DNA of 64,000 bases from Rhodohalobacter sp. (lineage in GTDB: Bacteria; Bacteroidota; Rhodothermia; Balneolales; Balneolaceae): assembly GCF_041686455.1 (NCBI RefSeq), contig NZ_JAWLDW010000004.1, forward strand, positions 64 to 64,063. The letters run 5' to 3'. How positions within the stretch are numbered: position 1 is the stretch's first letter; each line of letters starts with the position of its first letter. This document shows, in pieces, positions 2,155-40,000 of the stretch. The notes beneath the pieces are model-generated. The model searched no databases. It worked only from the letters and a program-made list of their open reading frames with translations, and was not told the DNA's origin. Both the position numbers and the translations under genes were made by a program.

Positions 2155-2913
2155 CTAGAAGCTGTGGTGTTCAGAGTGAACTACCTTTAGGGAACCGGGT
2201 TGATATGTTTTCTCGATAAAGGTTGTATCTCCATCCGGGTTGGCAAAAAGAAGTGTTGAGCAGCGAGTTCCATAGTCGTCTGAGAGAATAAATATAGAAG
2301 AGACCATTCGTTCTCTTTCTAGAGGAAGTCCTGTAGAGGGCAGCTTGTGATCAGGAAAAGTTTTTGTACTGCGAAGGAGTTCGAATAGCGATTCTTCCTG
2401 AAGTTTGTTGTCTTCAACCAGCGTTTTGAAATCAGATAGTGCCTTTTCGGTTTTGGGCCATTTTGTGCTTAAAAAAGCATTGCTTAATGAGTAATATCCG
2501 GGTTCTAATGCCCGAAGCTCGAGATGTTGATTGTTGAAATAGTAAAGGTTGTCGGTAGTACCAAATAATAGATTGAACCCGTTATAAGCTGTAGCCTTAG
2601 GCTTTATTGACTGAAAAAACTCAACAGGTCCGATATCGGAATTCAAAAAATCTGTGACAAGATACCCTCTGCTGGGGGCATTTTCTTTAAGACTTGTGAT
2701 ATCCCGGTAGTTCGTCAATGCCGCGAACCGTTGATTTTTAGTAATACCCAACCATGTACCTCCGGCTTTTAAATCTTTACCGGCCAGCAGATCCGGATGA
2801 TTTTCCCAAAATTGAGCAGGACGCGTTGGCCGTTCATAAAACTCATCTCTGTTGGTTGCCAACAAGAGAGGGTACTCTTTATGAACATGATATGCAAAAA
2901 CGGTTAGACACAT
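2155..2913 (-). CDS. NRDE/TANGO2 family protein
   Basis: N-terminal MCL, NRDEFYERP, GGTWLG, SRG.LV, YGTRCST. Confidence 0.92.
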   Translation of the reverse strand: MCLTVFAYHVHKEYPLLLATNRDEFYERPTRPAQFWENHPDLLAGKDLKAGGTWLGITKNQRFAALTNYRDITSLKENAPSRGYLVTDFLNSDIGPVEFFQSIKPKATAYNGFNLLFGTTDNLYYFNNQHLELRALEPGYYSLSNAFLSTKWPKTEKALSDFKTLVEDNKLQEESLFELLRSTKTFPDHKLPSTGLPLERERMVSSIFILSDDYGTRCSTLLFANPDGDTTFIEKTYQPGSLKVVHSEHHSF

Positions 2914-3033
2914 AAAAACAGGTGATTTAACTTTTTTAATAACACAAAAAATTTTGAAACTTTGTTTCTTAAATTCCGATGTAAATTAATGGATCTCCAT
3001 ATTTAATCAATAACTTCTTAACCTGCTTTAAAT

Positions 3034-5601
3034 TTGTATCCCGATACAACAAAAAGAGATATTGTACTACTGACAGCCGGTATTCTAGCCGCGCTGACTT
3101 TTTTCTGGTTGTATGGAATTCAGCATCCTTTAAGTAAAGCGGATACTTCTTTGGGTGAGGAGAGGGCTTCAACCCACGCTCAGGAGATTCTTCAATCCCT
3201 GGGATATCAGGCAGGAGTGGAGCCAAATACATTATTTCGCGTACAAACTTCGTTACTGGATTCTCTGCAGTATCAAACTGATTTTCAGGATTTCTACTCA
3301 GATGAACAGAAAAGGAATAAGTTTCCGGTTTTTTTCTGGCGGTCTGAATTTTTGGTAGAGAAGGTAGATACGGATGATTTTTCCATGGGACCTGGAAATT
3401 TCAGAAGTATAGAAGTGGATCTCAATGAGAATGGTGAGTTGCGATCACTGAATAACTCAGATAACCTAATTCCTGAAAACTTTTTTCATACAGAAGTGCT
3501 CTCTTACGCATTAGATATTGAGCATCCGGAAATACCTGCTGAATCGGTTGACAGCACACTGTTCGACAGAATACAGTTTCAGTTTTCGTCGGCTCAAACT
3601 GTGCTGAACCCAGAAGAAGAACACGGTGGTCTAACCCAGATGGGTACAGATGTGGCGGAAAAAATGGCGAATTATCATTTAAAGAATACCGGTTGGCCGA
3701 TAACCGATCTTCAGTTAAGGCAAGTCGAAAGAGTCACCTTAGAATTAACAGATGCCGCAAAGGTTGTCTATTCGATCGAAGATGATGTCATCAATCAAAC
3801 AATTGATCTGAGCGTTACCGTTCTGCCTACGGGAGCTCTCCTATCGCTAAACAATAGCTTACGATCAGATGAAGCTGCCGGTACTTCATGGGATACTATA
3901 ATCTCGGGTATCAGGGGTGCAGTATTACTATTGCTGGTTTTCTGGATTCTTATTCTGTTTATAATCCGCTTCAGAATGAGATTGATTGACACAAAAGCCG
4001 CAATATTGGTTGCCGTCTTAGCCGGATTTATTTTTCCGTTGGTAATGCTGTCGCAATTGACTTTTGAGCATTTCAATAATTCGGGGAGTATCGATTTTAA
4101 TTTCATCTCAATGGTCATGATTTCGGCGGGTGTGACCGCAGCTTTTACATCCCTGATTTACTTCCTTGTTACAGCCATATCAGACTCTATAACCCGTCAA
4201 AACTGGGTTGAAAAGCTACAGACGATTGATCTGCTTAGAATAGGGCATTTTTTCAACAAACCGGTTGGCCTCTCTTTTATCAGAGGTATTGCCTACTCGT
4301 TTATTTTAGCGGGTATATGGGCATTAGCCTATTCTATTATGCCAAACGGTTACCTTACAGCCGAACCGGTCTTTTTTTCTGACGATAGATACTTGGCTAA
4401 TATTGTATTAATGCTGACAAACATAGCCGTTTTCTTTCTGGTAGCTCAGTTAATTTTTCTAGTATTCTTGGGCAAGATGAAAAAGATTGCAGATTCTTCT
4501 GTAACTCTTGTTTTACTTGTTGGGCTGATATTTGGAATTATGAACCCTCTTGCCGCAAGCGTGGGTCCGTTTTACGTGGAGTTTGTACTGTTAGCTATCG
4601 TTGGATTAGTTTTGGGCTGGATTTATATTCGCGATGATTTCCTAACAGTATTTATTACTCTGTTCTTTTTTGCCAATCATCTAGCTACGGCCCCGGGTTG
4701 GGTGATATCGCAATCACCTGACGCCATCCTTTTCTTTACGAATATCTTGCTTGCGCTTGTGGGCCTGGTTTATGGAGGATATTCTTTAAGCACCGGAAAG
4801 ACTGAAAAGGAACTTCCCAATTTTGTGCCTGAATATGTTGATGAGCTAGCTCAGAGTGAACGGATAAAACAAGAACTTCAGATTGCGCGTAAAGTTCAGC
4901 AGTCATTTTTACCCATCAGTACACCGAATTTTGAAGGTCTGGATATTTCTGCAGTATGTAAGCCGGCTTATGAAACCGGAGGAGATTACTACGATTTTAT
5001 CTCTCTGAAAGATGATCAGCTTGGTGTAACAATTGGTGATGTAAGCGGAAAAGGAATACAGGCTGCTTTTTTTATGACCTTTATAAAAGGTGTGATTCAT
5101 GCCGTTTGTGAAAACTTTGAATCTACTGTAACGGTTTTGGCCAGGGCCAATAAGTTGTTTAAAAAGAATGCCGGCAAAGGGATTTTTATTTCTCTTATAT
5201 TTGGTGTAGTGGATGTGAAAAGGGATCGATTTACCTTTTCGAGAGCAGGGCACAATCCACTTCTTTTCTTTAAAAGCAAGGAAAAGAAACTGTACACCTA
5301 CACGCCCGAAGGTATCGGTTTAGGAATAACTGAGGATAAAATCTTCAGGGAAAACATTTCTGAACTGTCGTTAGACTTTCAGCAAAACGATATTATAATA
5401 TTGTACACTGATGGTGTTGTTGAGGCAACCAATAATGTAAATCGATTTTATGGCGATAACAGGCTTAAAAAACTTATCGAAACCTACCAGGAATCAAATG
5501 CAGATACTCTTTTGAATAAAATAGTTGAAGACCTTTACACGTTTGGAGATGGTACCAATCAACACGATGATATGACTCTTGTAGTCATCAAAAAGAAGTA
5601 A
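3034..5601 (+). CDS. membrane-anchored PP2C/SpoIIE (RsbU-like) phosphatase
   Basis: C-terminal ELQIARKVQ, GGDYYD, GDVSGKG, RAGHNP, YTDGVVEA, DDMTL; large periplasmic and multi-TM N-terminus. Confidence 0.9.
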   Translation: MYPDTTKRDIVLLTAGILAALTFFWLYGIQHPLSKADTSLGEERASTHAQEILQSLGYQAGVEPNTLFRVQTSLLDSLQYQTDFQDFYSDEQKRNKFPVFFWRSEFLVEKVDTDDFSMGPGNFRSIEVDLNENGELRSLNNSDNLIPENFFHTEVLSYALDIEHPEIPAESVDSTLFDRIQFQFSSAQTVLNPEEEHGGLTQMGTDVAEKMANYHLKNTGWPITDLQLRQVERVTLELTDAAKVVYSIEDDVINQTIDLSVTVLPTGALLSLNNSLRSDEAAGTSWDTIISGIRGAVLLLLVFWILILFIIRFRMRLIDTKAAILVAVLAGFIFPLVMLSQLTFEHFNNSGSIDFNFISMVMISAGVTAAFTSLIYFLVTAISDSITRQNWVEKLQTIDLLRIGHFFNKPVGLSFIRGIAYSFILAGIWALAYSIMPNGYLTAEPVFFSDDRYLANIVLMLTNIAVFFLVAQLIFLVFLGKMKKIADSSVTLVLLVGLIFGIMNPLAASVGPFYVEFVLLAIVGLVLGWIYIRDDFLTVFITLFFFANHLATAPGWVISQSPDAILFFTNILLALVGLVYGGYSLSTGKTEKELPNFVPEYVDELAQSERIKQELQIARKVQQSFLPISTPNFEGLDISAVCKPAYETGGDYYDFISLKDDQLGVTIGDVSGKGIQAAFFMTFIKGVIHAVCENFESTVTVLARANKLFKKNAGKGIFISLIFGVVDVKRDRFTFSRAGHNPLLFFKSKEKKLYTYTPEGIGLGITEDKIFRENISELSLDFQQNDIIILYTDGVVEATNNVNRFYGDNRLKKLIETYQESNADTLLNKIVEDLYTFGDGTNQHDDMTLVVIKKK

Positions 5602-5621
5602 AATCACTCAGATCAATTTAC

Positions 5622-6128
5622 ATGAAGAATTTCTTACACATACTAATTGCCTTAACTTTTTTAATGATTGTGTTACTCTTTTCTTCCCGGCAATCAGTGG
5701 CTCAGGATGTTGAAATTACCCCTGAACCTATCAGTCTCGAGGAGGCTCTGAAACTCGCACCTGAATCCGATAAAAAAATTCTGGTTGATGTTTATGCCGA
5801 ATGGTGTCCTTACTGCCAGAGAATGCATTCAGAAGTGTACAAGAATGATGATGTAATCAAGGCGATTTCTGATCACTACATATGGGTCAAAATCAATGTG
5901 GAGTCGGATCAAATGGTAAGCTATCATGGAAATGAAATGACCGAAGCGCAGTTTGCCCGTGCACTTGAAAATGAGAGCGTTCCGACAACCTATTTTCTGA
6001 ATAAGGAAGGCAGCATTCTTGGTTCTCAGCCCGGTTTTATCGAAGCGGAGATGTTTTCCAGTCTTCTAAAGTTTGTTGGCAGCGATGAATACCTTATGCA
6101 GACCTTTCAGGAGTATCAAAATAATTAG
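5622..6128 (+). CDS. exported thioredoxin-like protein (SoxW-like)
   Basis: Signal peptide followed by WCPYC (CxxC) and a VPT cis-Pro motif. Confidence 0.85.
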   Translation: MKNFLHILIALTFLMIVLLFSSRQSVAQDVEITPEPISLEEALKLAPESDKKILVDVYAEWCPYCQRMHSEVYKNDDVIKAISDHYIWVKINVESDQMVSYHGNEMTEAQFARALENESVPTTYFLNKEGSILGSQPGFIEAEMFSSLLKFVGSDEYLMQTFQEYQNN

Positions 6129-6158
6129 TCCTACGTATCAGTAATTTAATTTTTGTTC

Positions 6159-6824
6159 ATGTCCAGAAGTCAATCCGTTGAAGATTATTTAAAAGCTATC
6201 TATAAGCTCGAAAATGAGTCAGAGGGTGGAGTCTCTAACTCGAGACTTTCTGAGGAGATGAATGTAGCCGGTGCATCCGTGACCAATATGGTGAAGAGAT
6301 TGTCTAAAATGGGGCTGGTGAACTACGAATCCTACTATGGCTCCAGATTAACCGATGCGGGAGAAAAAATTGCTCTTGAAATTATTCGTCATCATCGATT
6401 GATTGAACTTTATTTAACAGAGATGATGGGTTACTCCTGGGATGAAGTGCATGAGGAGGCTGAAAAGCTGGAGCACCATATATCAGAACAATTTGAAGAT
6501 CGAATTGCGGAACTGCTCAATAACCCACAGTTTGACCCTCACGGAGACCCAATACCCGGAAAAGATGGGAAGATGCCCAAAGTTCACCTTTTTTCATTGA
6601 TGGAGATTAAAGAAAAGACTTCATGTGTAATCAGAAGGGTAAAAAATCAGGATCCGGACCTTCTTCGTTACCTGGAAGAAAGAAATCTGATACCGGGCGT
6701 AAAGATTGAGATTATTAAGAGAGAACCTTTTGATGGCCCTGTTCATATATCTGTTGAAGGAGAGAATGAAGTGGTGATCGGTGCTAATGTAGCATCAGAT
6801 ATCTTTGTGGTAAACCGTGCGTAG
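6159..6824 (+). CDS. DtxR/MntR family metal-dependent repressor with FeoA-like C-terminal domain
   Basis: EDYLKAIY, RHHRLIELYL, EAEKLEH, PQFDPHGDPIP. Confidence 0.92.
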   Translation: MSRSQSVEDYLKAIYKLENESEGGVSNSRLSEEMNVAGASVTNMVKRLSKMGLVNYESYYGSRLTDAGEKIALEIIRHHRLIELYLTEMMGYSWDEVHEEAEKLEHHISEQFEDRIAELLNNPQFDPHGDPIPGKDGKMPKVHLFSLMEIKEKTSCVIRRVKNQDPDLLRYLEERNLIPGVKIEIIKREPFDGPVHISVEGENEVVIGANVASDIFVVNRA

Positions 6825-6828
6825 TCCG

Positions 6829-7656
6829 TTATGGAGTGTGATCCATCGGATTTGGATATGAAAAGGTGTATTCTAATTCCTTTTTTAACTTATCGTTTGA
6901 AACGACTCTATAGTCCGCTTTTTCTTGACTGGTGAATTCAGGTTCCGGTAAATTGAAATGTTGAGCAGCTGATTTGTAAAACTCTTTTCTGGGAGGATGC
7001 CCATCGGAAACGGCGTTATAAATTTCGTTCTTTTTATCCAGCCTGATAATTTCTGAAACTATATTCAAACAGTCCGTTTGATGGATAAGGTTTACAGGTT
7101 TTGCTGCATCCGAAAGCCCTTTCTTTCCGGCAAGATATTTTACCGGGTGCCTGCCATATCCATACAATCCGCCAAACCTGATAATTGTAACATCCAGTCC
7201 TGATTTTTTGAGAATATCTTCAGCTTTTAAGACTGCTTCTCCCGAAGGCCGGGCAGCATTACCGGGCTCTGCGTCTTCCTCTTTAGTGATTCCTCCAAAC
7301 GGACTATAAACGGATGTTGAGCTCGCAAAGATGATCCACTTGATATGTTCTCTTTCTGCCTTATCAGCAACTTTTTGAATAAGCTTCGGGTAATCTTTCT
7401 CAACATCTTTGATGCCGCGACCGGGAGGTATATTCAGAAATAAGATATCTGCAGACCAAAAACTTTTTGATTCCTCATCCTCAAGCTGTTTGGGTAACTC
7501 AATCAAATGAGCCTGAATACCGGTTTGTTTGATCTCTTTTAGTTTTTTTACGGATGTGGTTGAACCCTTCACGGTAAAACCCTTTCTCAATAAATTTTGG
7601 GCCAATGGAAATCCAAGCCATCCACACCCTAGTACTGAAATAGTCATGGTAGTCAT
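6829..7656 (-). CDS. NAD(P)-dependent epimerase/dehydratase-type SDR (YeeZ-like)
   Basis: GCGWLG Rossmann motif, SSTSVY, RFGGLYG, VNLIH. Confidence 0.88.
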   Translation of the reverse strand: MTTMTISVLGCGWLGFPLAQNLLRKGFTVKGSTTSVKKLKEIKQTGIQAHLIELPKQLEDEESKSFWSADILFLNIPPGRGIKDVEKDYPKLIQKVADKAEREHIKWIIFASSTSVYSPFGGITKEEDAEPGNAARPSGEAVLKAEDILKKSGLDVTIIRFGGLYGYGRHPVKYLAGKKGLSDAAKPVNLIHQTDCLNIVSEIIRLDKKNEIYNAVSDGHPPRKEFYKSAAQHFNLPEPEFTSQEKADYRVVSNDKLKKELEYTFSYPNPMDHTP

Positions 7657-7879
7657 TATTTAAATGGGTTTGGAATGTAAACACAACAGGGCAGAATTGA
7701 AAAGGTGATTAAACAAAAAAGAGTCTATAACGAAAGAAGCATTTGTTTTCGTTTTACAACAGATCTGCAAAATTTAAATGTATCACCTTTCTGACTTCTC
7801 AGAATTCTATTAATATCTGCTTAACTTAATTTTTGTAGATTTGACTTCTTATGTAGCTGGTTTCACCTGTATTATCACT

Positions 7880-7887
7880 TATCTTTG
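7880..7887 (+). promoter_or_regulatory. Bacteroidota-type -7 promoter box (TATCTTTG) upstream of hemG
   Basis: Exact TAnnTTTG. Similar boxes precede other genes here (TATATTTG before 15759; TATCTTTA before 40426 and 56264). Confidence 0.4.
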
Positions 7888-8086
7888 CGTTGCACTCTAA
7901 AAGAGTGATGTGAACCACGATAAAATTATCAATCGTATTACAGGAGTAATTCTTTTTTAGCCGTTTCTTTCAATCAATTACAATTAAGCTGAATTGGAGA
8001 AATAGACAGGAAGTAATTTTATTTTCAGCTTAGGTATTGAATAGAATGGATCTATTCATGAATGAAAATCTAGTTTTTAAAAATAG

Positions 8087-9454
8087 ATGTATATGTCAAA
8101 AAAAATTAACCGAGTAGCCATTGTCGGAGCCGGTATTACAGGTTTGGTTACAGCATGGAAACTCCAGAAATTTAGTGTGGAAGTTGATGTTTTGGAGCGA
8201 AAGGCGGAACCTGGCGGTGCAATTAAAACGGTTAAAGAGGACAATTGGCAGGTTGAATACGGCCCCAATACACTACTCCTAAAAGATAGAATGGTAGCCG
8301 AATTCATTTCAGAACTTGGTTTGAACGGTGAGAAAAAAACTGCTAACCCTGAGGCGAGCAAGAGGTTTGTGGTAAAAAACGGTGTATTGGAACCTCTGCC
8401 GTCCTCTTTAAAATCAGCCGTAACAACTCCCCTATTTAGTTTAGGAGGGAAATTACGAGTGCTGGCAGAACCATTTGTACCTAAAAATAGTGATCGCGAT
8501 CAGACAGTGGCAGAATTTGTGGAGAGGCGATTGGGCAAGGAGATGCTGGATTACGCTATTAATCCATTTGTTGCCGGGATATATGCCAATCGTCCGGAAT
8601 ATTTATCTCTTCGACACGCATTCCCGATGATGGATGACCTTGAACAAGAGTACGGTTCACTGATTTGGGGTACTTTTGCCGGATCAAAAAAGAGAAAGGA
8701 GAAGGGTAGAATAGATAGGGAATTAATCTCCTTTGAAAAAGGAATGCAGCAACTTCCCTTAACTATTGCGGAGCAGCTCAACAGTATGTACCTGAATCAC
8801 GAAGTTCGGTCGGTTACCGAAGAGGATGGAGAATGGTCGGTAGAAAGCAGTTTGGGGAAATTTGGGCCATATGATCACGTTATTTTAAATACCCCGATTT
8901 ATAAGTTGAATCAAGAAATCGCGCCCGTTACGGATCAAGAACTGAAAACTTTGAAAAAGGTGAACTATCCGCCTCTATCTGTTTTGCTTTTAGGTTTTAA
9001 AAAGGAGGATGTTAAACACGAACTTGATGGCTTTGGGTTTTTGGTTCCCGAACAGGAGAACAGAAACATTCTGGGAGCCCTGTTCTCTTCCACTCTTTTT
9101 GATGAGCGTGCTCCTAAGGATATGCATTTAATAACCGTATTTGTAGGTGGTGGCCGTCAGCCAGAATTAGCCGGGAAGGATAGTGAAGAGTTACTGAAGC
9201 TGGTTGTAAAGGAGCTTAATGATTTGATAGGCCTGTCGGGAGAACCGCAATTTAAAGACCATGTCTACTGGCCACAATCAATTCCGGGATATCATGAAGG
9301 CTACGATGAAATTCTGGATACTATCAAAAATATTGAAGATCGAAAGAGAGGCCTTACGTTAGCCGGTAATTTCAGGAATGGAATATCTGTACCGGATTGT
9401 ATAAAGAATGGGTTGAAGTTGGCGGACCAGCTGGCCGGAAGCGTAAGTTACTGA
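8087..9454 (+). CDS. hemG: protoporphyrinogen/coproporphyrinogen oxidase (HemY/HemG type)
   Basis: GAGITGL FAD motif, EYGPNT, PFVAGIYA, GFGFLVP, IPGY..G, G.SVPDCI..G. Confidence 0.92.
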   Translation: MYMSKKINRVAIVGAGITGLVTAWKLQKFSVEVDVLERKAEPGGAIKTVKEDNWQVEYGPNTLLLKDRMVAEFISELGLNGEKKTANPEASKRFVVKNGVLEPLPSSLKSAVTTPLFSLGGKLRVLAEPFVPKNSDRDQTVAEFVERRLGKEMLDYAINPFVAGIYANRPEYLSLRHAFPMMDDLEQEYGSLIWGTFAGSKKRKEKGRIDRELISFEKGMQQLPLTIAEQLNSMYLNHEVRSVTEEDGEWSVESSLGKFGPYDHVILNTPIYKLNQEIAPVTDQELKTLKKVNYPPLSVLLLGFKKEDVKHELDGFGFLVPEQENRNILGALFSSTLFDERAPKDMHLITVFVGGGRQPELAGKDSEELLKLVVKELNDLIGLSGEPQFKDHVYWPQSIPGYHEGYDEILDTIKNIEDRKRGLTLAGNFRNGISVPDCIKNGLKLADQLAGSVSY

Positions 9455-35682: not shown

Positions 35683-36357
35683 TTAATACCAATCTATATC
35701 TCTGATTTCAAATAAGTCTTCATCAGAGGGGTCTGTATTGATCAATATTCCGCCGACGGCCAACAGTGGCTTACCTTCTAAATAGGAAAGACAGGAAGTG
35801 ATGATTTCCCTGATTTCATGTTTAATCTCATCATATGTTATTTCAGTAGCAGTTATGACTTGGTCTTCTGAATTGGAAAGTTTTTTCCAATTTTTTCGAA
35901 GAAGATTTTTCACCTCCTCCTGTTGATAATCATACTGTGGCTTTTTAGAATTCTCATTATTTTTTAATGTATTGAGTGCTCCTATGACTGAACCGCAACT
36001 TGAAGTATTAAGTTGTTGCCCGGCCCGGTGTACTTTTCCGATTTCACCTTCTTGAGTAATTCCAACATGAGGTCCATAGACAATAAAAGCACCTCCATTA
36101 TCTGGTATATGGCTTGAAAAAGCTTTAAAACCAGTCTTGCCCGCAAAAGGGATTCCTGAAATACCCCCAAGGATAAAAGGCCCAAATGTTTCAAAATATT
36201 CATCTAGCTGATGAAGACTCTGATTAACTTCGTCACTACAAACCGAGGTTGCCCAAAGTGTATTTTTTTGGTTTAAGTTTTTTTTAGATAGTTTTTCTAG
36301 TACAAATTCTTGGAGTTTGGGAATGGGTACTGCTCTAGGGAAATAGTTGTCTATCAT
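35683..36357 (-). CDS. LCIB/LCIC-type beta-carbonic anhydrase homolog
   Basis: SVCSDEVN, F.LGG.SGIPFAGKTG..AF..H.P, GPHVGI, HRAG, SCGS; gives the Cys/His/Cys zinc-ligand set and Asp/Arg of the LCIB_C_CA family. Confidence 0.8.
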   Translation of the reverse strand: MIDNYFPRAVPIPKLQEFVLEKLSKKNLNQKNTLWATSVCSDEVNQSLHQLDEYFETFGPFILGGISGIPFAGKTGFKAFSSHIPDNGGAFIVYGPHVGITQEGEIGKVHRAGQQLNTSSCGSVIGALNTLKNNENSKKPQYDYQQEEVKNLLRKNWKKLSNSEDQVITATEITYDEIKHEIREIITSCLSYLEGKPLLAVGGILINTDPSDEDLFEIRDIDWY

Positions 36358-36472: not shown

Positions 36473-37933
36473 TTATTCACCTTGGCCGGACGAAAAGGCG
36501 GGTTCATTGTCGAACAGATAAAGGTTTTCCGTTTTAATGATATCTATAGCATGTTTGGTTAATCTTTTTTGAAGATCAACAACTTTGAACTGAGTGGCTT
36601 TCCCATTCATAGATTTAAATCTGCATCGCCAATGATCTGTACAAAAAGTTTCTGGATTACCATTTGGCCATACTTTTGTACCTCGATTTGTAATCATGGT
36701 CAGTTCAAACTCCTCACTGGCTGCGTCATTAAGTCTTTGAGCAAGTAGATTTATATTTTGGGGTTCCCAATAGATAAATACGTCCACTCCGGTAAGAGTC
36801 CTTTTTTGAGTTGCAGAAGGTTTATTTTCTGACCTGCTCAATTTTAATGCCGGGATCTGAAAATTAACGGCTCCGGATGTAGAAACTTTTGAAAGTGTTG
36901 CCGGCTTCTGTCCTAATCTCTCGATTACAGCTTGGGTGAAATCTTGAGTGGAAGCTTTGAGCTTGCTGTCGTTATTAAATATGTCAGGAGTGTGAATTCC
37001 ATCTTCAAGAGTTTTAAGCCAGGCATTTTGAATATTATCCGCTTGAGTAAACTGCCCAAGATGCCTTAACATCATTACAGAAGCTTGAATGAGAGCCGAA
37101 GGATTTGCAATATTATGGCCGGCAATATCCGGGGCTGATCCATGAATTGCTTCAAACATAGCTGTTTTTGTTCCAATATTTGCTGAGCCCACCATACCCA
37201 CTGATCCTGAAATCTGAGCTGTGATATCTGAAACAATATCTCCGTACAAGTTCGGCATAACTACTACATCAAACCGCTCAGGAGTGTCTGCTAGTCTGGC
37301 AGTTCCAATATCCACAATTAAATTTTCTGATTCGATGTGTGGGTACTCTTTGGAAACTGTTTTAAACACATCGTGAAAAAGACCATCCGTCAGTTTCATG
37401 ATATTGTCTTTTGTAAGACAGGTTACTTTACTTCGGCCATTCGATTTTGCATACTCAAAAGCGTAGCGTACGATTCGTTCAGTACCGGGAAGGGTGATTA
37501 ATTTAAGGCATTGGTATACTTCAAAGGTTTGTCTGTGCTCGATACCGCCGTATGTATCTTCTTCATTTTCGCGGATTACAATTACATCCATATCCGGATG
37601 TTTGGTTTTAACAAATGGATGGTAAGCCCTGCATGGCCTTACATTTGCAAAAAGGCCGAGAGTCTTTCGCAATGTTACATTTAAACTTTTCACACCGCCT
37701 CCCTGGGGGGTAGTAATAGGAGCTTTTAGCAGAATTTTATTCTTTGAGATTATGTCCCAGCTTTTATCTTCGATCCCCGCTTTAATACCTTTGTTATAAA
37801 CTTTTTCACCTACTTCAATTGACTCATAAATGAGATTAGAATTAGCCGCATCTAGAATTTTTAAGGTAGAATCCATTATCTCAGGACCAATTCCGTCTCC
37901 GTGCGCCACAGTAATTGTTTTCGTAAAGCTCAT
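36473..37933 (-). CDS. icd: isocitrate dehydrogenase, long form with C-terminal extension
   Basis: GDGIGPEI, KAPITTPQGGG.KSLNV, RENEED.Y, K.NIMKLTDG, PNLYGDI.SD, EAIHGSAPDIAG, C-terminal MITNRG.KVWP..CTDHWRCRF. Confidence 0.92.
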   Translation of the reverse strand: MSFTKTITVAHGDGIGPEIMDSTLKILDAANSNLIYESIEVGEKVYNKGIKAGIEDKSWDIISKNKILLKAPITTPQGGGVKSLNVTLRKTLGLFANVRPCRAYHPFVKTKHPDMDVIVIRENEEDTYGGIEHRQTFEVYQCLKLITLPGTERIVRYAFEYAKSNGRSKVTCLTKDNIMKLTDGLFHDVFKTVSKEYPHIESENLIVDIGTARLADTPERFDVVVMPNLYGDIVSDITAQISGSVGMVGSANIGTKTAMFEAIHGSAPDIAGHNIANPSALIQASVMMLRHLGQFTQADNIQNAWLKTLEDGIHTPDIFNNDSKLKASTQDFTQAVIERLGQKPATLSKVSTSGAVNFQIPALKLSRSENKPSATQKRTLTGVDVFIYWEPQNINLLAQRLNDAASEEFELTMITNRGTKVWPNGNPETFCTDHWRCRFKSMNGKATQFKVVDLQKRLTKHAIDIIKTENLYLFDNEPAFSSGQGE

Positions 37934-37992
37934 TATTTTTTGTTTAAATGTTGAATATGCGGCGAAAAAATAGGGTGCTTTTTGTATAAATA

Positions 37993-38026
37993 ATAATTAA
38001 CATAAATGATTATAATCATAAGTTAT
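37993..38026. promoter_or_regulatory. LysR-type boxes in the icd/lysR divergent promoter
   Basis: ATAA-N7-TTAT at 38012-38026, imperfect ATAA-N7-AAAT at 37993-38007, 14-bp palindrome ATGATTATAATCAT at 38006-38019. Confidence 0.6.
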
Positions 38027-38031
38027 CGTTT

Positions 38032-38934
38032 ATGTCATTTACGCTACATCAACTGGACGTTTTTGCATCAGTGGCAAAAAACAAAAGCATTACCAAAGCA
38101 GCTAAAGAGCTATTTATGAGTCAGCCTGCGGTTTCAATTCAGGTAAAGAAATTACAGGAACACTTCGACATTGACCTTATTGAGGTAATAGGTAAGCAGC
38201 TTTACTTGACTGATGCAGGAGTTGAGCTCTATAACTCACAGAAGAAAATTAAGAGTGAGCTTAAGTCTTTGGAGATGGCGCTTGATGAATTAAAAGGGGT
38301 GATGAAGGGTAAATTAAGTATTGTGGTGGTGTCAACCGCGAAATATTTCATGCCTTACATCCTTGGAAAATTCAGAGATGAGTTGCCTCACGTACAGATA
38401 TCTTTAAAAGTAACAGACCGAATTGAAGTTGCGTCTCAATTAAAAGAAAATGCATGTGACCTGGCTGTTTTTTCACAATTGCCAGAGGGAATAGCGTTGG
38501 AGCAGATCGGATTTTTGTCAAATCCATTGGTGCTGGCTGCTTCACCCAATCATGATCTTGCAAATAAAAAAAATATCCAGTGGGAAGATCTTAAAAAGTA
38601 CGACTTTTTGATCCGGGAAACAGGGTCTGGAACCAGACTGGTGATGGAAAGTTTATTAAATCAGGAAAGCATTAATCCAAAAATTGTAATGGAGTTGAGT
38701 ACGAACGAAGCTGTGAAACAAGCAATTATGGCTGGAATAGGAATTTCATTAGTGTCGCGATACAGCTTGCTAAATGAAGAAAAAATGGGCAAAATATCTG
38801 TTTTGGACGTTAAAGGTTTACCCTATGTGAATAACTGGAAATTGGTTTATCCCAAAGGTAAAAAGTTGAGCCCGGTTGCAAGGAGTTTCATTCAATTTGC
38901 AAAGAATAAAAATATCCACGCAATCATAAGTTGA
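38032..38934 (+). CDS. LysR family regulator, CbbR/CmpR-like
   Basis: TLHQLDVF..VA...SITKAAKEL.MSQPAVSIQVK HTH; VVSTAKYFMP..LG.F, RE.GSGTR and STNEAVKQAI.AG.G typical of the CbbR subgroup. Confidence 0.85.
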   Translation: MSFTLHQLDVFASVAKNKSITKAAKELFMSQPAVSIQVKKLQEHFDIDLIEVIGKQLYLTDAGVELYNSQKKIKSELKSLEMALDELKGVMKGKLSIVVVSTAKYFMPYILGKFRDELPHVQISLKVTDRIEVASQLKENACDLAVFSQLPEGIALEQIGFLSNPLVLAASPNHDLANKKNIQWEDLKKYDFLIRETGSGTRLVMESLLNQESINPKIVMELSTNEAVKQAIMAGIGISLVSRYSLLNEEKMGKISVLDVKGLPYVNNWKLVYPKGKKLSPVARSFIQFAKNKNIHAIIS

Positions 38935-39042: not shown

Positions 39043-39999
39043 ATGGAATCTCTGCTATCAAATTTTACATCACCTATTGTGATGGCTTTTGTCTTGGGAA
39101 TCGTTGCAAAAGTAGTTAAGAGTGATCTTGAATTTCCGCAACCTATCTATAAGGCCTTATCGATCTACTTGCTGCTTGCAATTGGATTAAAGGGGGGGGT
39201 TGAACTTAGCACTACGGCTTTTTCTGACTTCATTTGGCCAGTTGTTGCTACAATTTCCTTAGGTATTTTAACCCCACTCATTGCATATGCAGTATTGAGA
39301 TATATGGGTAAATTTGATGTCTCAAACGCGGCGGGTATTGCTGCACATTACGGTTCTGTTTCGGCAGTAACATTCATAGCTGCTATCAGCTATGCTGAAA
39401 GTTTAGGAGACTCTCCCGAGGGTTTTCTTCCTGCCCTTGTTGCATTGCTGGAGGTGCCGGGAATTATTGTTGCTTTGATGATACCTCAAATTATTAATTC
39501 AGGTTCAGGTTCTGTTAAAAAAGCACTTCACGAAGTTGTAACAGGCAGCAGTATAATTTTGTTGCTTGGAGGATTGATAATTGGATATTTGGCAGGTCCT
39601 AAAAGTTTTGAACCGGTAGCCCCATTTTTTGTAAATGGTTTCCAGGGGGCTTTAGTGCTTTTTCTACTGGAACTTGGGATGATTACCGCACGCAGGCTCG
39701 GTGATTTGAAAAGAGCGGGCTTTTTCTTGTTGGGATTTGGAATAATAGTGCCTATCCTCTTTGGGTTTATGGCAGTTTTAGTAGGGCTCTGGTCAGGTCT
39801 AAGTGTAGCAGGCAGTTCTGTATTTGCCGCTATGGTTTCCAGCGGGAGTTACATTGCAGCCCCTGCAGCTGTAAGAATTGCATTACCAAAAGCAAGTCCT
39901 ACACTTTACCTTACAGCATCACTTGGAATAACTTTTCCTTTTAACATTACGCTGGGTATTCCATTATACTATGTAATTGCAACTTGGTTTGGAGGTTAA
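39043..39999 (+). CDS. sbtA: sodium-dependent bicarbonate transporter (SbtA/DUF897)
   Basis: S.YLL.AIGLKGGVEL, AAHYGSVSAVTF, FLLELG, SYIAAPAA.R, LG.TFPFNI.LGIPLY. Confidence 0.92.
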   Translation: MESLLSNFTSPIVMAFVLGIVAKVVKSDLEFPQPIYKALSIYLLLAIGLKGGVELSTTAFSDFIWPVVATISLGILTPLIAYAVLRYMGKFDVSNAAGIAAHYGSVSAVTFIAAISYAESLGDSPEGFLPALVALLEVPGIIVALMIPQIINSGSGSVKKALHEVVTGSSIILLLGGLIIGYLAGPKSFEPVAPFFVNGFQGALVLFLLELGMITARRLGDLKRAGFFLLGFGIIVPILFGFMAVLVGLWSGLSVAGSSVFAAMVSSGSYIAAPAAVRIALPKASPTLYLTASLGITFPFNITLGIPLYYVIATWFGG

Positions 40000-40000
40000 T

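Follow-up and report, generated by a model that had tools for sequence, protein, structure and literature searches.

LCIB holds a central place in the algal CO2-concentrating mechanism (CCM), is puzzling in its biochemistry and is a target for crop engineering. In Chlamydomonas, LCIB and LCIC are proteins of 448 aa that form LCIB-LCIC complexes at the periphery of the pyrenoid, i.e., the organelle that holds Rubisco, where they are proposed to trap CO2 as HCO3- in an alkaline compartment near HCO3- conduits; Chlamydomonas LCIB (CrLCIB) and LCIC carry the same zinc ligands as the protein described below, are inactive in vitro and show disorder at His162 and Arg194, two residues whose importance is stated for CrLCIB (PMC5876011). 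PtLCIB3 and PtLCIB4 of the diatom Phaeodactylum tricornutum are described as constitutively active (PMC9614477, citing Jin 2016), and a 2026 survey of microbial carbonic anhydrases (CAs) assigned the theta class mainly to diatoms and protozoa (PMC13098186). The literature searched here yielded no papers on bacterial LCIB homologs or on a pairing of LCIB with SbtA. For the bacterial side, the closest described systems are the cyanobacterial SbtA/SbtB low-carbon regulon, in which a Na+-dependent HCO3- transporter and its PII-like partner are under LysR control (CmpR/CcmR), the E. coli-type cytoplasmic beta-CA Can and the MpsAB transporter, which has been shown experimentally to be an alternative to Can for carbon supply in staphylococci, with the two supply routes described for Firmicutes (PMC8552792).

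Here we describe a locus in a stretch of 64,000 nucleotides from Rhodohalobacter sp. (Balneolaceae), referred to below as the window, in which a gene for an LCIB-type protein faces an SbtA/SbtB-type gene pair (Table 1). Our reading, which we hold with a probability of roughly two in three, is that the LCIB protein is a predicted housekeeping cytoplasmic CA that forms, together with lysR-sbtA-sbtB, an inorganic-carbon supply module of a heterotroph.

Table 1. Features of the LCIB-sbtAB locus in the window, and the canonical beta-CA gene found elsewhere in the same genome
Feature	Position	Strand	Details
LCIB-type (theta / beta-like) carbonic anhydrase gene	35683..36357	-	ATG start, 224 aa
icd, NADP-isocitrate dehydrogenase (CO2-releasing)	36473..37933	-	Pfam Iso_dh and Isocitrate_DH_C_bact
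LysR-box-like element ATAAATAATAATTAACATA	37986..38004		AT-rich, T-N11-A core; in the icd<>lysR divergent gap
Degenerate second copy of the ATAAATAATAATTAACATA element	38002-38020		
Sigma-70-type promoter match	38038->38009	-	ATGACA-18-TATAAT, 11/12
lysR, LysR-family regulator, CbbR-like	38032..38934	+	Pfam HTH_1 and LysR_substrate
sbtA, SbtA-family putative Na+/HCO3- symporter	39043..39999	+	318 aa; Pfam Sbt_1 (PF05982), E 1.7e-111
sbtB, SbtB-like PII-family protein	39977..40303	+	Pfam P-II (PF00543), E 2e-17
Only canonical beta-CA of the window genome	G000:C59:5077-5820	-	248 aa; starts MFTKLSLFTTAIFLMFSFTAC, lipoprotein-type signal

Family, modelled fold and predicted active site of the LCIB-type protein

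The initial annotation, made from the sequence alone, had described the gene as encoding an LCIB/LCIC-type protein on the basis of four motifs, and both the reading frame and the motifs are present in the translation (SVCSDEVN at aa 38-45, GPHVGI at 95-100, HRAG at 110-113 and SCGS at 120-123). A search with the Pfam model PF18599 (LCIB_C_CA), one of the checks proposed at that time, gave a match far beyond chance (186.5 bits against a gathering cut-off of 25; E 5.6e-55) that covers positions 1-214 of the 223 positions of the model. Conversely, the protein showed no match to PF00484 (Pro_CA) at E <= 0.01, and none of the NCBIfam models matched it. The canonical beta-CA signature CxDxR ... HxxC is also absent, as the protein carries C-S-D-E-V in place of the first part and differs in the spacing between the His and the Cys of the second. 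By both PF00484 and motif, the protein is thus not a canonical beta-CA.

Among structures in the PDB, the best sequence match was PtLCIB4 (5b5y; E 3.8e-34, 35% identity), followed by 9vzj/9w00/9w05 and 6kfs and then by Chlamydomonas LCIB (6e-13) and LCIC (7e-10). We considered 6kfs and 9vzj/9w00/9w05 as possible bacterial LCIBs and rejected them, as their sequences look eukaryote-type; 6kfs we take to be a close diatom-like relative. An AlphaFold2 monomer model of the LCIB protein, built on an alignment of 39 homologs, reached a mean pLDDT of 91.8 and a pTM of 0.90. When this model was compared to known structures with Foldseek, TM scores were 0.91 for both 5b5y and 6kfs, 0.71 for 5k5w (CrLCIB; approx. 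0.71 for CrLCIB/LCIC overall) and approx. 0.5 for canonical beta-CAs, and the overlay on PtLCIB4, together with the PF18599 match, bears out the LCIB-type family and fold at the level of a predicted model. The bacterial protein shares with PtLCIB4 and PtLCIB3 the Pfam family, the fold, a single catalytic domain of similar size and the active-site pattern Cys-Ser-Asp ... His ... His ... Arg ... Cys; unlike these proteins, it has no targeting sequence, belongs to a non-photosynthetic host and is encoded in an sbtAB neighbourhood, outside any plastid CCM. With Chlamydomonas LCIB and LCIC it shares the homologous domain and the zinc ligands at an identity of only 17-19%; the capture of CO2 as HCO3- proposed for these algal proteins is similar in concept to the role proposed here. 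In modelled structure and in sequence, the bacterial protein therefore appears to resemble the active PtLCIB type.

The register of the alignment between the LCIB protein and PtLCIB4 was anchored by the S47R and H88A mutant chains of PtLCIB4 deposited in the PDB, which place S41 at Ser47 and H83 at His88. With the register set in this way, C40, H97 and C121 correspond to Cys46, His102 and Cys126 of PtLCIB4; these are the zinc ligands of PtLCIB4, as reportedly assigned by Jin et al. in 2016. C40, H97 and C121 are thus the predicted Zn ligands and D42, H83 and R111 the predicted catalytic or active-site residues, with the Asp located two residues past the first Cys, and every residue aligned to a zinc or catalytic residue of PtLCIB4 is retained. 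All six positions, as well as several Gly and Pro residues, are invariant in 39 homologs with identities down to approx. 32%, in agreement with the Cys-His-Cys site that the initial annotation had proposed. R111 would be the equivalent of Arg194 of CrLCIB.

Conserved residues do not prove catalysis, as CrLCIB and LCIC keep their ligands and yet are inactive in vitro. A silent or only conditionally active LCIB-like protein, which would sense CO2/HCO3- or regulate SbtA, could thus be envisaged from the intact zinc site of the inactive Chlamydomonas proteins (PMC5876011). We consider this improbable, as the model is nearer to PtLCIB4 (TM 0.91, 35% identity) than to CrLCIB (TM 0.71, 19% identity), as H83 and R111, the equivalents of the residues disordered in CrLCIB (His162 and Arg194), are invariant, and as the perfect exclusivity with Can-type CAs described below argues for the same enzymatic job. 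Every line of evidence on LCIB-family membership that was examined (i.e., HMM, ligands, catalytic residues and fold) places the 224-aa protein in the family, and its LCIB fold is practically certain; that it is an active CA we regard as likely. Reading of the sequence revealed no signal peptide or N-terminal hydrophobic segment, and the protein should therefore be cytoplasmic.

The sbtAB neighbourhood and its conservation among Balneolaceae

In the window, the LCIB gene is preceded, 115 nt upstream and on the same strand, by icd, the product of which scores 744 bits against NCBIfam NF006673 (cut-off 509) and represents the only close isocitrate dehydrogenase (ICDH) copy in the genome. No terminator-like site was found on the minus strand between the two genes, and co-transcription of icd and the LCIB gene is therefore possible. 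The best NCBIfam model for the product of the divergent lysR gene is CbbR, at 228 bits and thus under the cut-off of 450. SbtA aligns with Synechocystis SbtA (7cye) in two blocks (E 4.6e-24); the cytoplasmic loop of approx. 55 aa found in the Synechocystis protein, the expected docking site of SbtB in such systems, is absent or much shorter here, as chain residues ~159-214 are skipped in the alignment. The closest PDB match of SbtB is TTHA0516 from Thermus (2cz4; E 1.5e-27), with cyanobacterial SbtB proteins at approx. 5e-12. The mechanically called sbtB frame begins at a TTG that overlaps sbtA; as orthologs of SbtB are mostly around 100 aa long (range 99-106), an ATG at approx. 40001 represents a plausible alternative start. 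A gene for an Sbt_1 permease is followed by an adjacent or overlapping gene for a PII-like protein, i.e., an SbtA/SbtB-type gene pair. The initial annotation had placed the LCIB gene beside sbtAB; the carbon-uptake context stands, while the immediate adjacency does not, as icd and lysR intervene and the two are 2.7 kb apart.

The locus shares with the cyanobacterial SbtA/SbtB regulon the Na+-dependent HCO3- transporter family, the PII-like partner and the LysR regulator, and differs from it in the heterotrophic host and in an SbtA without the long cytoplasmic loop. It also differs from the cyanobacterial CCM, which avoids a cytoplasmic CA, in that one is encoded within the sbtAB module. A search for the RuBisCO large subunit gave no match in the assembly of the window genome, which is 94% complete, and autotrophy, a carboxysome-type CCM or one tied to the CBB cycle was rejected on this ground. 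Given this result and a heterotrophic Balneolaceae host, the LCIB protein does not have the role of its algal relatives in a pyrenoid CCM.

The divergent gap between icd and lysR is 98 nt long and contains the LysR-box-like element. Allowing up to 4 mismatches, ATAAATAATAATTAACATA recurs in the gaps upstream of lysR in six further loci (L039-L043 and L076); in L039-L043 the element faces icd or the LCIB gene, and in L076 it precedes lysR. The few remaining matches with 4 mismatches fall elsewhere in the loci, and no copy was found in the LCIB<>sbtA gaps of loci without lysR. These sequence patterns suggest that the CbbR-like LysR protein is a likely low-inorganic-carbon regulator of the module and that it probably co-regulates both arms. 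The same region is overlapped by a near-consensus sigma-70-type promoter match that is aimed at icd (Table 1); as Bacteroidota-type promoters differ, its meaning is uncertain.

The frequency and placement of LCIB and sbtA genes were surveyed in 121 Balneolaceae genomes, using Pfam models searched genome-wide. LCIB was found in 67 of these genomes, representing 26 of 43 genera and always as a single copy, and the main SbtA type was found in 42. Both were present in 26 genomes, and in 23 of these (8 genera) they lie on the same contig, no more than 2.8 kb apart and in divergent orientation without exception. Three internal layouts were observed among the linked genomes, i.e., LCIB<>sbtA-sbtB (gaps of 160-300 bp), LCIB<>lysR-sbtA-sbtB and LCIB-icd<>lysR-sbtA-sbtB, where <> denotes divergent genes. 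The last is the arrangement in the window and is found in four genera from different LCIB sub-clades; the icd-LCIB order also occurs in G107, G115, G029, G095, G088 and G105, and the order lysR-sbtA-sbtB is conserved among loci. The module is found in at least four flank contexts, including yidD/cysS and rluB in Rhodohalobacter and, in several genera, rsmI, lnt and a gene for a 128-aa protein. Genus g2 and a metagenomic contig have yet other flanking genes; the LCIB on this contig is 43% identical to that of the window and likewise faces Sbt_1 and P-II genes. The ortholog in Rhodohalobacter halophilus JZ3C29, at the corresponding locus (L001), is 89% identical. The carbon-uptake context proposed for the gene is thus kept in 23 of the 26 family genomes in which it could be observed.

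Two further observations concern paralogs. In G071, a genome of the same genus, the cysS/rluB slot, which in the window holds the LCIB-icd<>lysR-sbtAB cassette, contains only an LCIB of the other clade (L051 7886-8581, + strand; 33% identical) in reversed orientation, and the slot thus holds a different paralog in each genome. Seven family genomes, i.e., G099 (C75), G106, G066, G103, G079, G053 and G083, carry a second, lower-scoring Sbt_1 paralog (approx. 296 bits, frames of 333-362 aa) away from the LCIB locus.

One possible explanation for the linkage is that the LCIB protein is an active housekeeping CA that replaces Can, and that it lies near sbtAB because the gene order was inherited, without any coupling in function or regulation. 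Of the 67 genomes with LCIB, 41 lack SbtA, and SbtA is found without LCIB in 16 genomes; neither therefore needs the other. In the LCIB tree all SbtA-linked genes fall in one of two clades; clade-A LCIBs are never linked to SbtA, even where the genome holds sbtA, and the three genomes with unlinked LCIB and SbtA carry an LCIB of this other clade. The wider synteny is common to several linked genera, and outside Balneolaceae the link to SbtA was not seen; part of the linkage could thus be inherited synteny, with several genera sharing the lnt-rsmI-128-aa side. On the other hand, the divergent pair survives the three internal layouts and the various flank contexts, the conserved LysR box faces the LCIB or icd-LCIB arm, a can gene fills the CA slot adjoining sbtAB in G099, and other bacterial LCIB genes lie in operons with bestrophin channels (both described below). 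Overall, we consider inherited order without coupling unlikely as a full account, and favor, with reasonable though not high confidence, a functional coupling of LCIB to SbtAB. In genomes that lack SbtA, the neighbours of LCIB are not transporters; a recurrent gene of approx. 600 aa divergent from LCIB was considered as a SulP/BicA transporter and rejected, as by eye it shows DEAD-box RNA helicase motifs.

Exclusivity with Can-type carbonic anhydrases

The co-occurrence survey covered CAs of the LCIB and beta types. Canonical beta-CAs of the Balneolaceae genomes were split by score into type 1 (>165 bits) and type 2 (approx. 120-150 bits). Type 1 proteins are Can-like, with 200-229 aa, and a signal peptide was absent from all three sequences read; on the other hand, all six type 2 sequences read start with a lipoprotein-type signal (...FTAC, ...VAC, ...GAC, ...IGC), and export is therefore predicted for type 2 beta-CAs. 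None of the 121 genomes carries LCIB (67 genomes) together with a type 1 beta-CA (27 genomes), a pattern with P = 2.8e-12 (Fisher's exact test, with kinship among genomes ignored); 27 genomes have neither. LCIB and type 2 beta-CAs showed no association (P = 0.17). The switch between LCIB and type 1 also occurs within genera: in the genus of the window, G000 (the window genome), G107, G115 and G071 carry LCIB and G038 and G099 carry type 1, and genus g11 represents a second genus with such a split.

The window genome contains a single canonical beta-CA, of the exported kind (Table 1); five orthologs in the family show the same lipoprotein-type signal, which suggests that this type is probably periplasmic. 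No Can-type gene was found in this genome by tblastn. As its canonical beta-CA is predicted to be exported and as a Can-type gene was not found, LCIB represents the only predicted cytoplasmic beta-fold CA of the genome. The LCIB protein would thus share with Can the job of a housekeeping bicarbonate supplier; it differs from Can in having neither a PF00484 match nor the CxDxR motif and in a fold likeness that is distant only (TM approx. 0.5).

A natural exchange of the two enzymes was found in the congeneric genome G099, which has no LCIB and in which carA-carB-sbtA-sbtB-can are arranged on one strand (L075, G099:C116:134000-150000, 2784-8951, + strand), followed downstream of can by DUF6671 (-) and icd (-) <> lysR (+). 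In this genome a canonical CA fills the CA slot adjoining sbtAB, i.e., an in-situ swap. Carbamoyl-phosphate synthetase, the product of carAB, uses bicarbonate as a substrate, and the gene order in G099 ties SbtAB and a CA to this enzyme.

This gene order also bears on the idea that the purpose of the module is homeostasis of pH and sodium in alkaline brine, where the cytoplasm would be buffered or acidified by entry of Na+ and HCO3- together with CA activity. Judged from names, the genus has a halophilic habitat, and one bacterial LCIB operon has a gene for a Na+/H+ exchanger after the bestrophin gene. However, sbtAB-can in G099 lies downstream of carAB, the product of which consumes bicarbonate, the regulator resembles CbbR rather than NhaR, and the exclusivity with Can points to a general housekeeping role; we thus consider homeostasis of pH and sodium a very improbable purpose of the module. 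A role in inorganic-carbon supply may also accommodate the eight genomes that have SbtA without any beta-fold CA, as these fit, by analogy, a scheme with interchangeable transporter and CA supply routes. The same relation, i.e., transporter and CA as alternative or complementary routes of carbon supply, is described for MpsAB and Can (PMC8552792). Overall, the interpretation put forward in the initial annotation is supported, and has been upgraded, by the conserved divergent linkage, the strict exclusivity with Can and the in-situ swap.

Wider occurrence and proposed role

PF18599 is a family of modest size, with 1,262 clusters (50% identity) out of 1.84 billion representative sequences. Bacterial homologs had been said to be mostly annotated as hypothetical, and every named bacterial match was indeed called "hypothetical protein". 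In a phylogenetic tree, bacterial LCIBs form one clade and eukaryote-type LCIBs another (SH-aLRT 99), where the eukaryotic clade unites sequences that lie among eukaryotic genes or come from transcriptomes with other long sequences presumed to be eukaryotic. A recent transfer of LCIB from algae is thus unsupported, given these separate and well-supported clades. The local GC content is 0.36 as compared to approx. 0.42, i.e., only slightly low. Outside Balneolaceae, LCIB is rare in other Bacteroidota, with approx. 6 genomes in a phylum sample of 401 genomes. No LCIB-SbtA pair was found outside Balneolaceae at the loci examined, and little could be learned from the genes directly flanking four of five further Bacteroidota LCIB genes (LytTR, lipocalin, OsmC and similar).

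At two of nine Bacteroidota loci outside Balneolaceae (L068 374-2112, - strand, and the P0105 contig, JGI 3300059473), LCIB and a bacterial bestrophin gene (PF25539) are closely paired on one strand, in opposite gene orders and with gaps of 12 bp and 20 bp. The LCIBs of these two pairs are 70% identical, and one pair is followed by the Na+/H+ exchanger gene. The partnership of LCIB and bestrophin in algae is echoed by these bacterial pairs.

Other contexts were seen as well. Genes of a closely related LCIB sub-clade are part of clusters with FUR<>MerC-GTP cyclohydrolase I and phosphatase genes (PhoX or metallophosphatases), i.e., L072 1083-9334 in Reichenbachiella versicolor, which also carries CobW and DUF1826, and L069 6760-13359 in Balneolaceae G079. 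Both clusters resemble Zur regulons, i.e., those of zinc starvation, and the sub-clade may thus have a role in zinc economy. Three tandem LCIB_C_CA calls of 238, 345 and 116 aa (L054 6089-9557, + strand) were found on a contig of metagenomic origin that also carries eukaryotic genes (XRN1, NB-ARC).

In beta-CAs a zinc-bound hydroxide, held by Cys-His-Cys and tuned by a neighbouring Asp, attacks CO2. For the module in the window, we infer catalytic activity of the LCIB protein, HCO3- transport by SbtA, control by LysR and the direction of net flux as follows. SbtA would bring in external HCO3- together with Na+, with SbtB gating or throttling it, and the LCIB CA would equilibrate the CO2/HCO3- pool in a slightly alkaline cytoplasm, thus taking the role that is otherwise filled by a Can-type beta-CA, i.e., fast interconversion of CO2 and HCO3-. 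Respiratory CO2, e.g., from the co-oriented ICDH, would be trapped as HCO3- by the LCIB CA, and imported HCO3- could be turned into CO2 where CO2 is the substrate. Bicarbonate users (i.e., carbamoyl-phosphate synthetase, biotin carboxylases and PEP carboxylase) would thereby be supplied in air or in alkaline brine, and LysR would raise both arms when inorganic carbon is short. In cyanobacteria, a cytoplasmic CA beside an active HCO3- pump dissipates the accumulated pool; as a CA would dissipate pumped HCO3- here as well, LCIB and SbtA may serve alternative conditions.

The LCIB-lysR-sbtAB module represents an undescribed variant of inorganic-carbon supply, the enzyme of which is a bacterial member of a known family. 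A broader reading, which we find possible but on the whole doubtful, is that bacterial LCIBs are dedicated partners of bicarbonate conduits (SbtAB, bestrophins and possibly other anion permeases) in a widespread heterotroph module, and that the Balneolaceae LCIB fully took the role of Can. If this were true, bacterial operons would contain a counterpart to, or even a forerunner of, the algal pairing of LCIB/theta-CA with bestrophin.

For the narrower reading, i.e., a housekeeping CA in a carbon supply module, the significance lies in the biology of the family. Balneolaceae would have replaced the essential Can by an LCIB-type enzyme that is kept near an SbtA/SbtB operon, which gives bacterial LCIB proteins a testable job, i.e., the supply of inorganic carbon to the cell. 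The protein described here would offer a small, soluble and probably constitutively active LCIB that could be assayed in E. coli. The module may also give first access to the physiology of SbtA/SbtB homologs in heterotrophs, and the natural swaps of LCIB and Can next to sbtAB make both functions directly testable.
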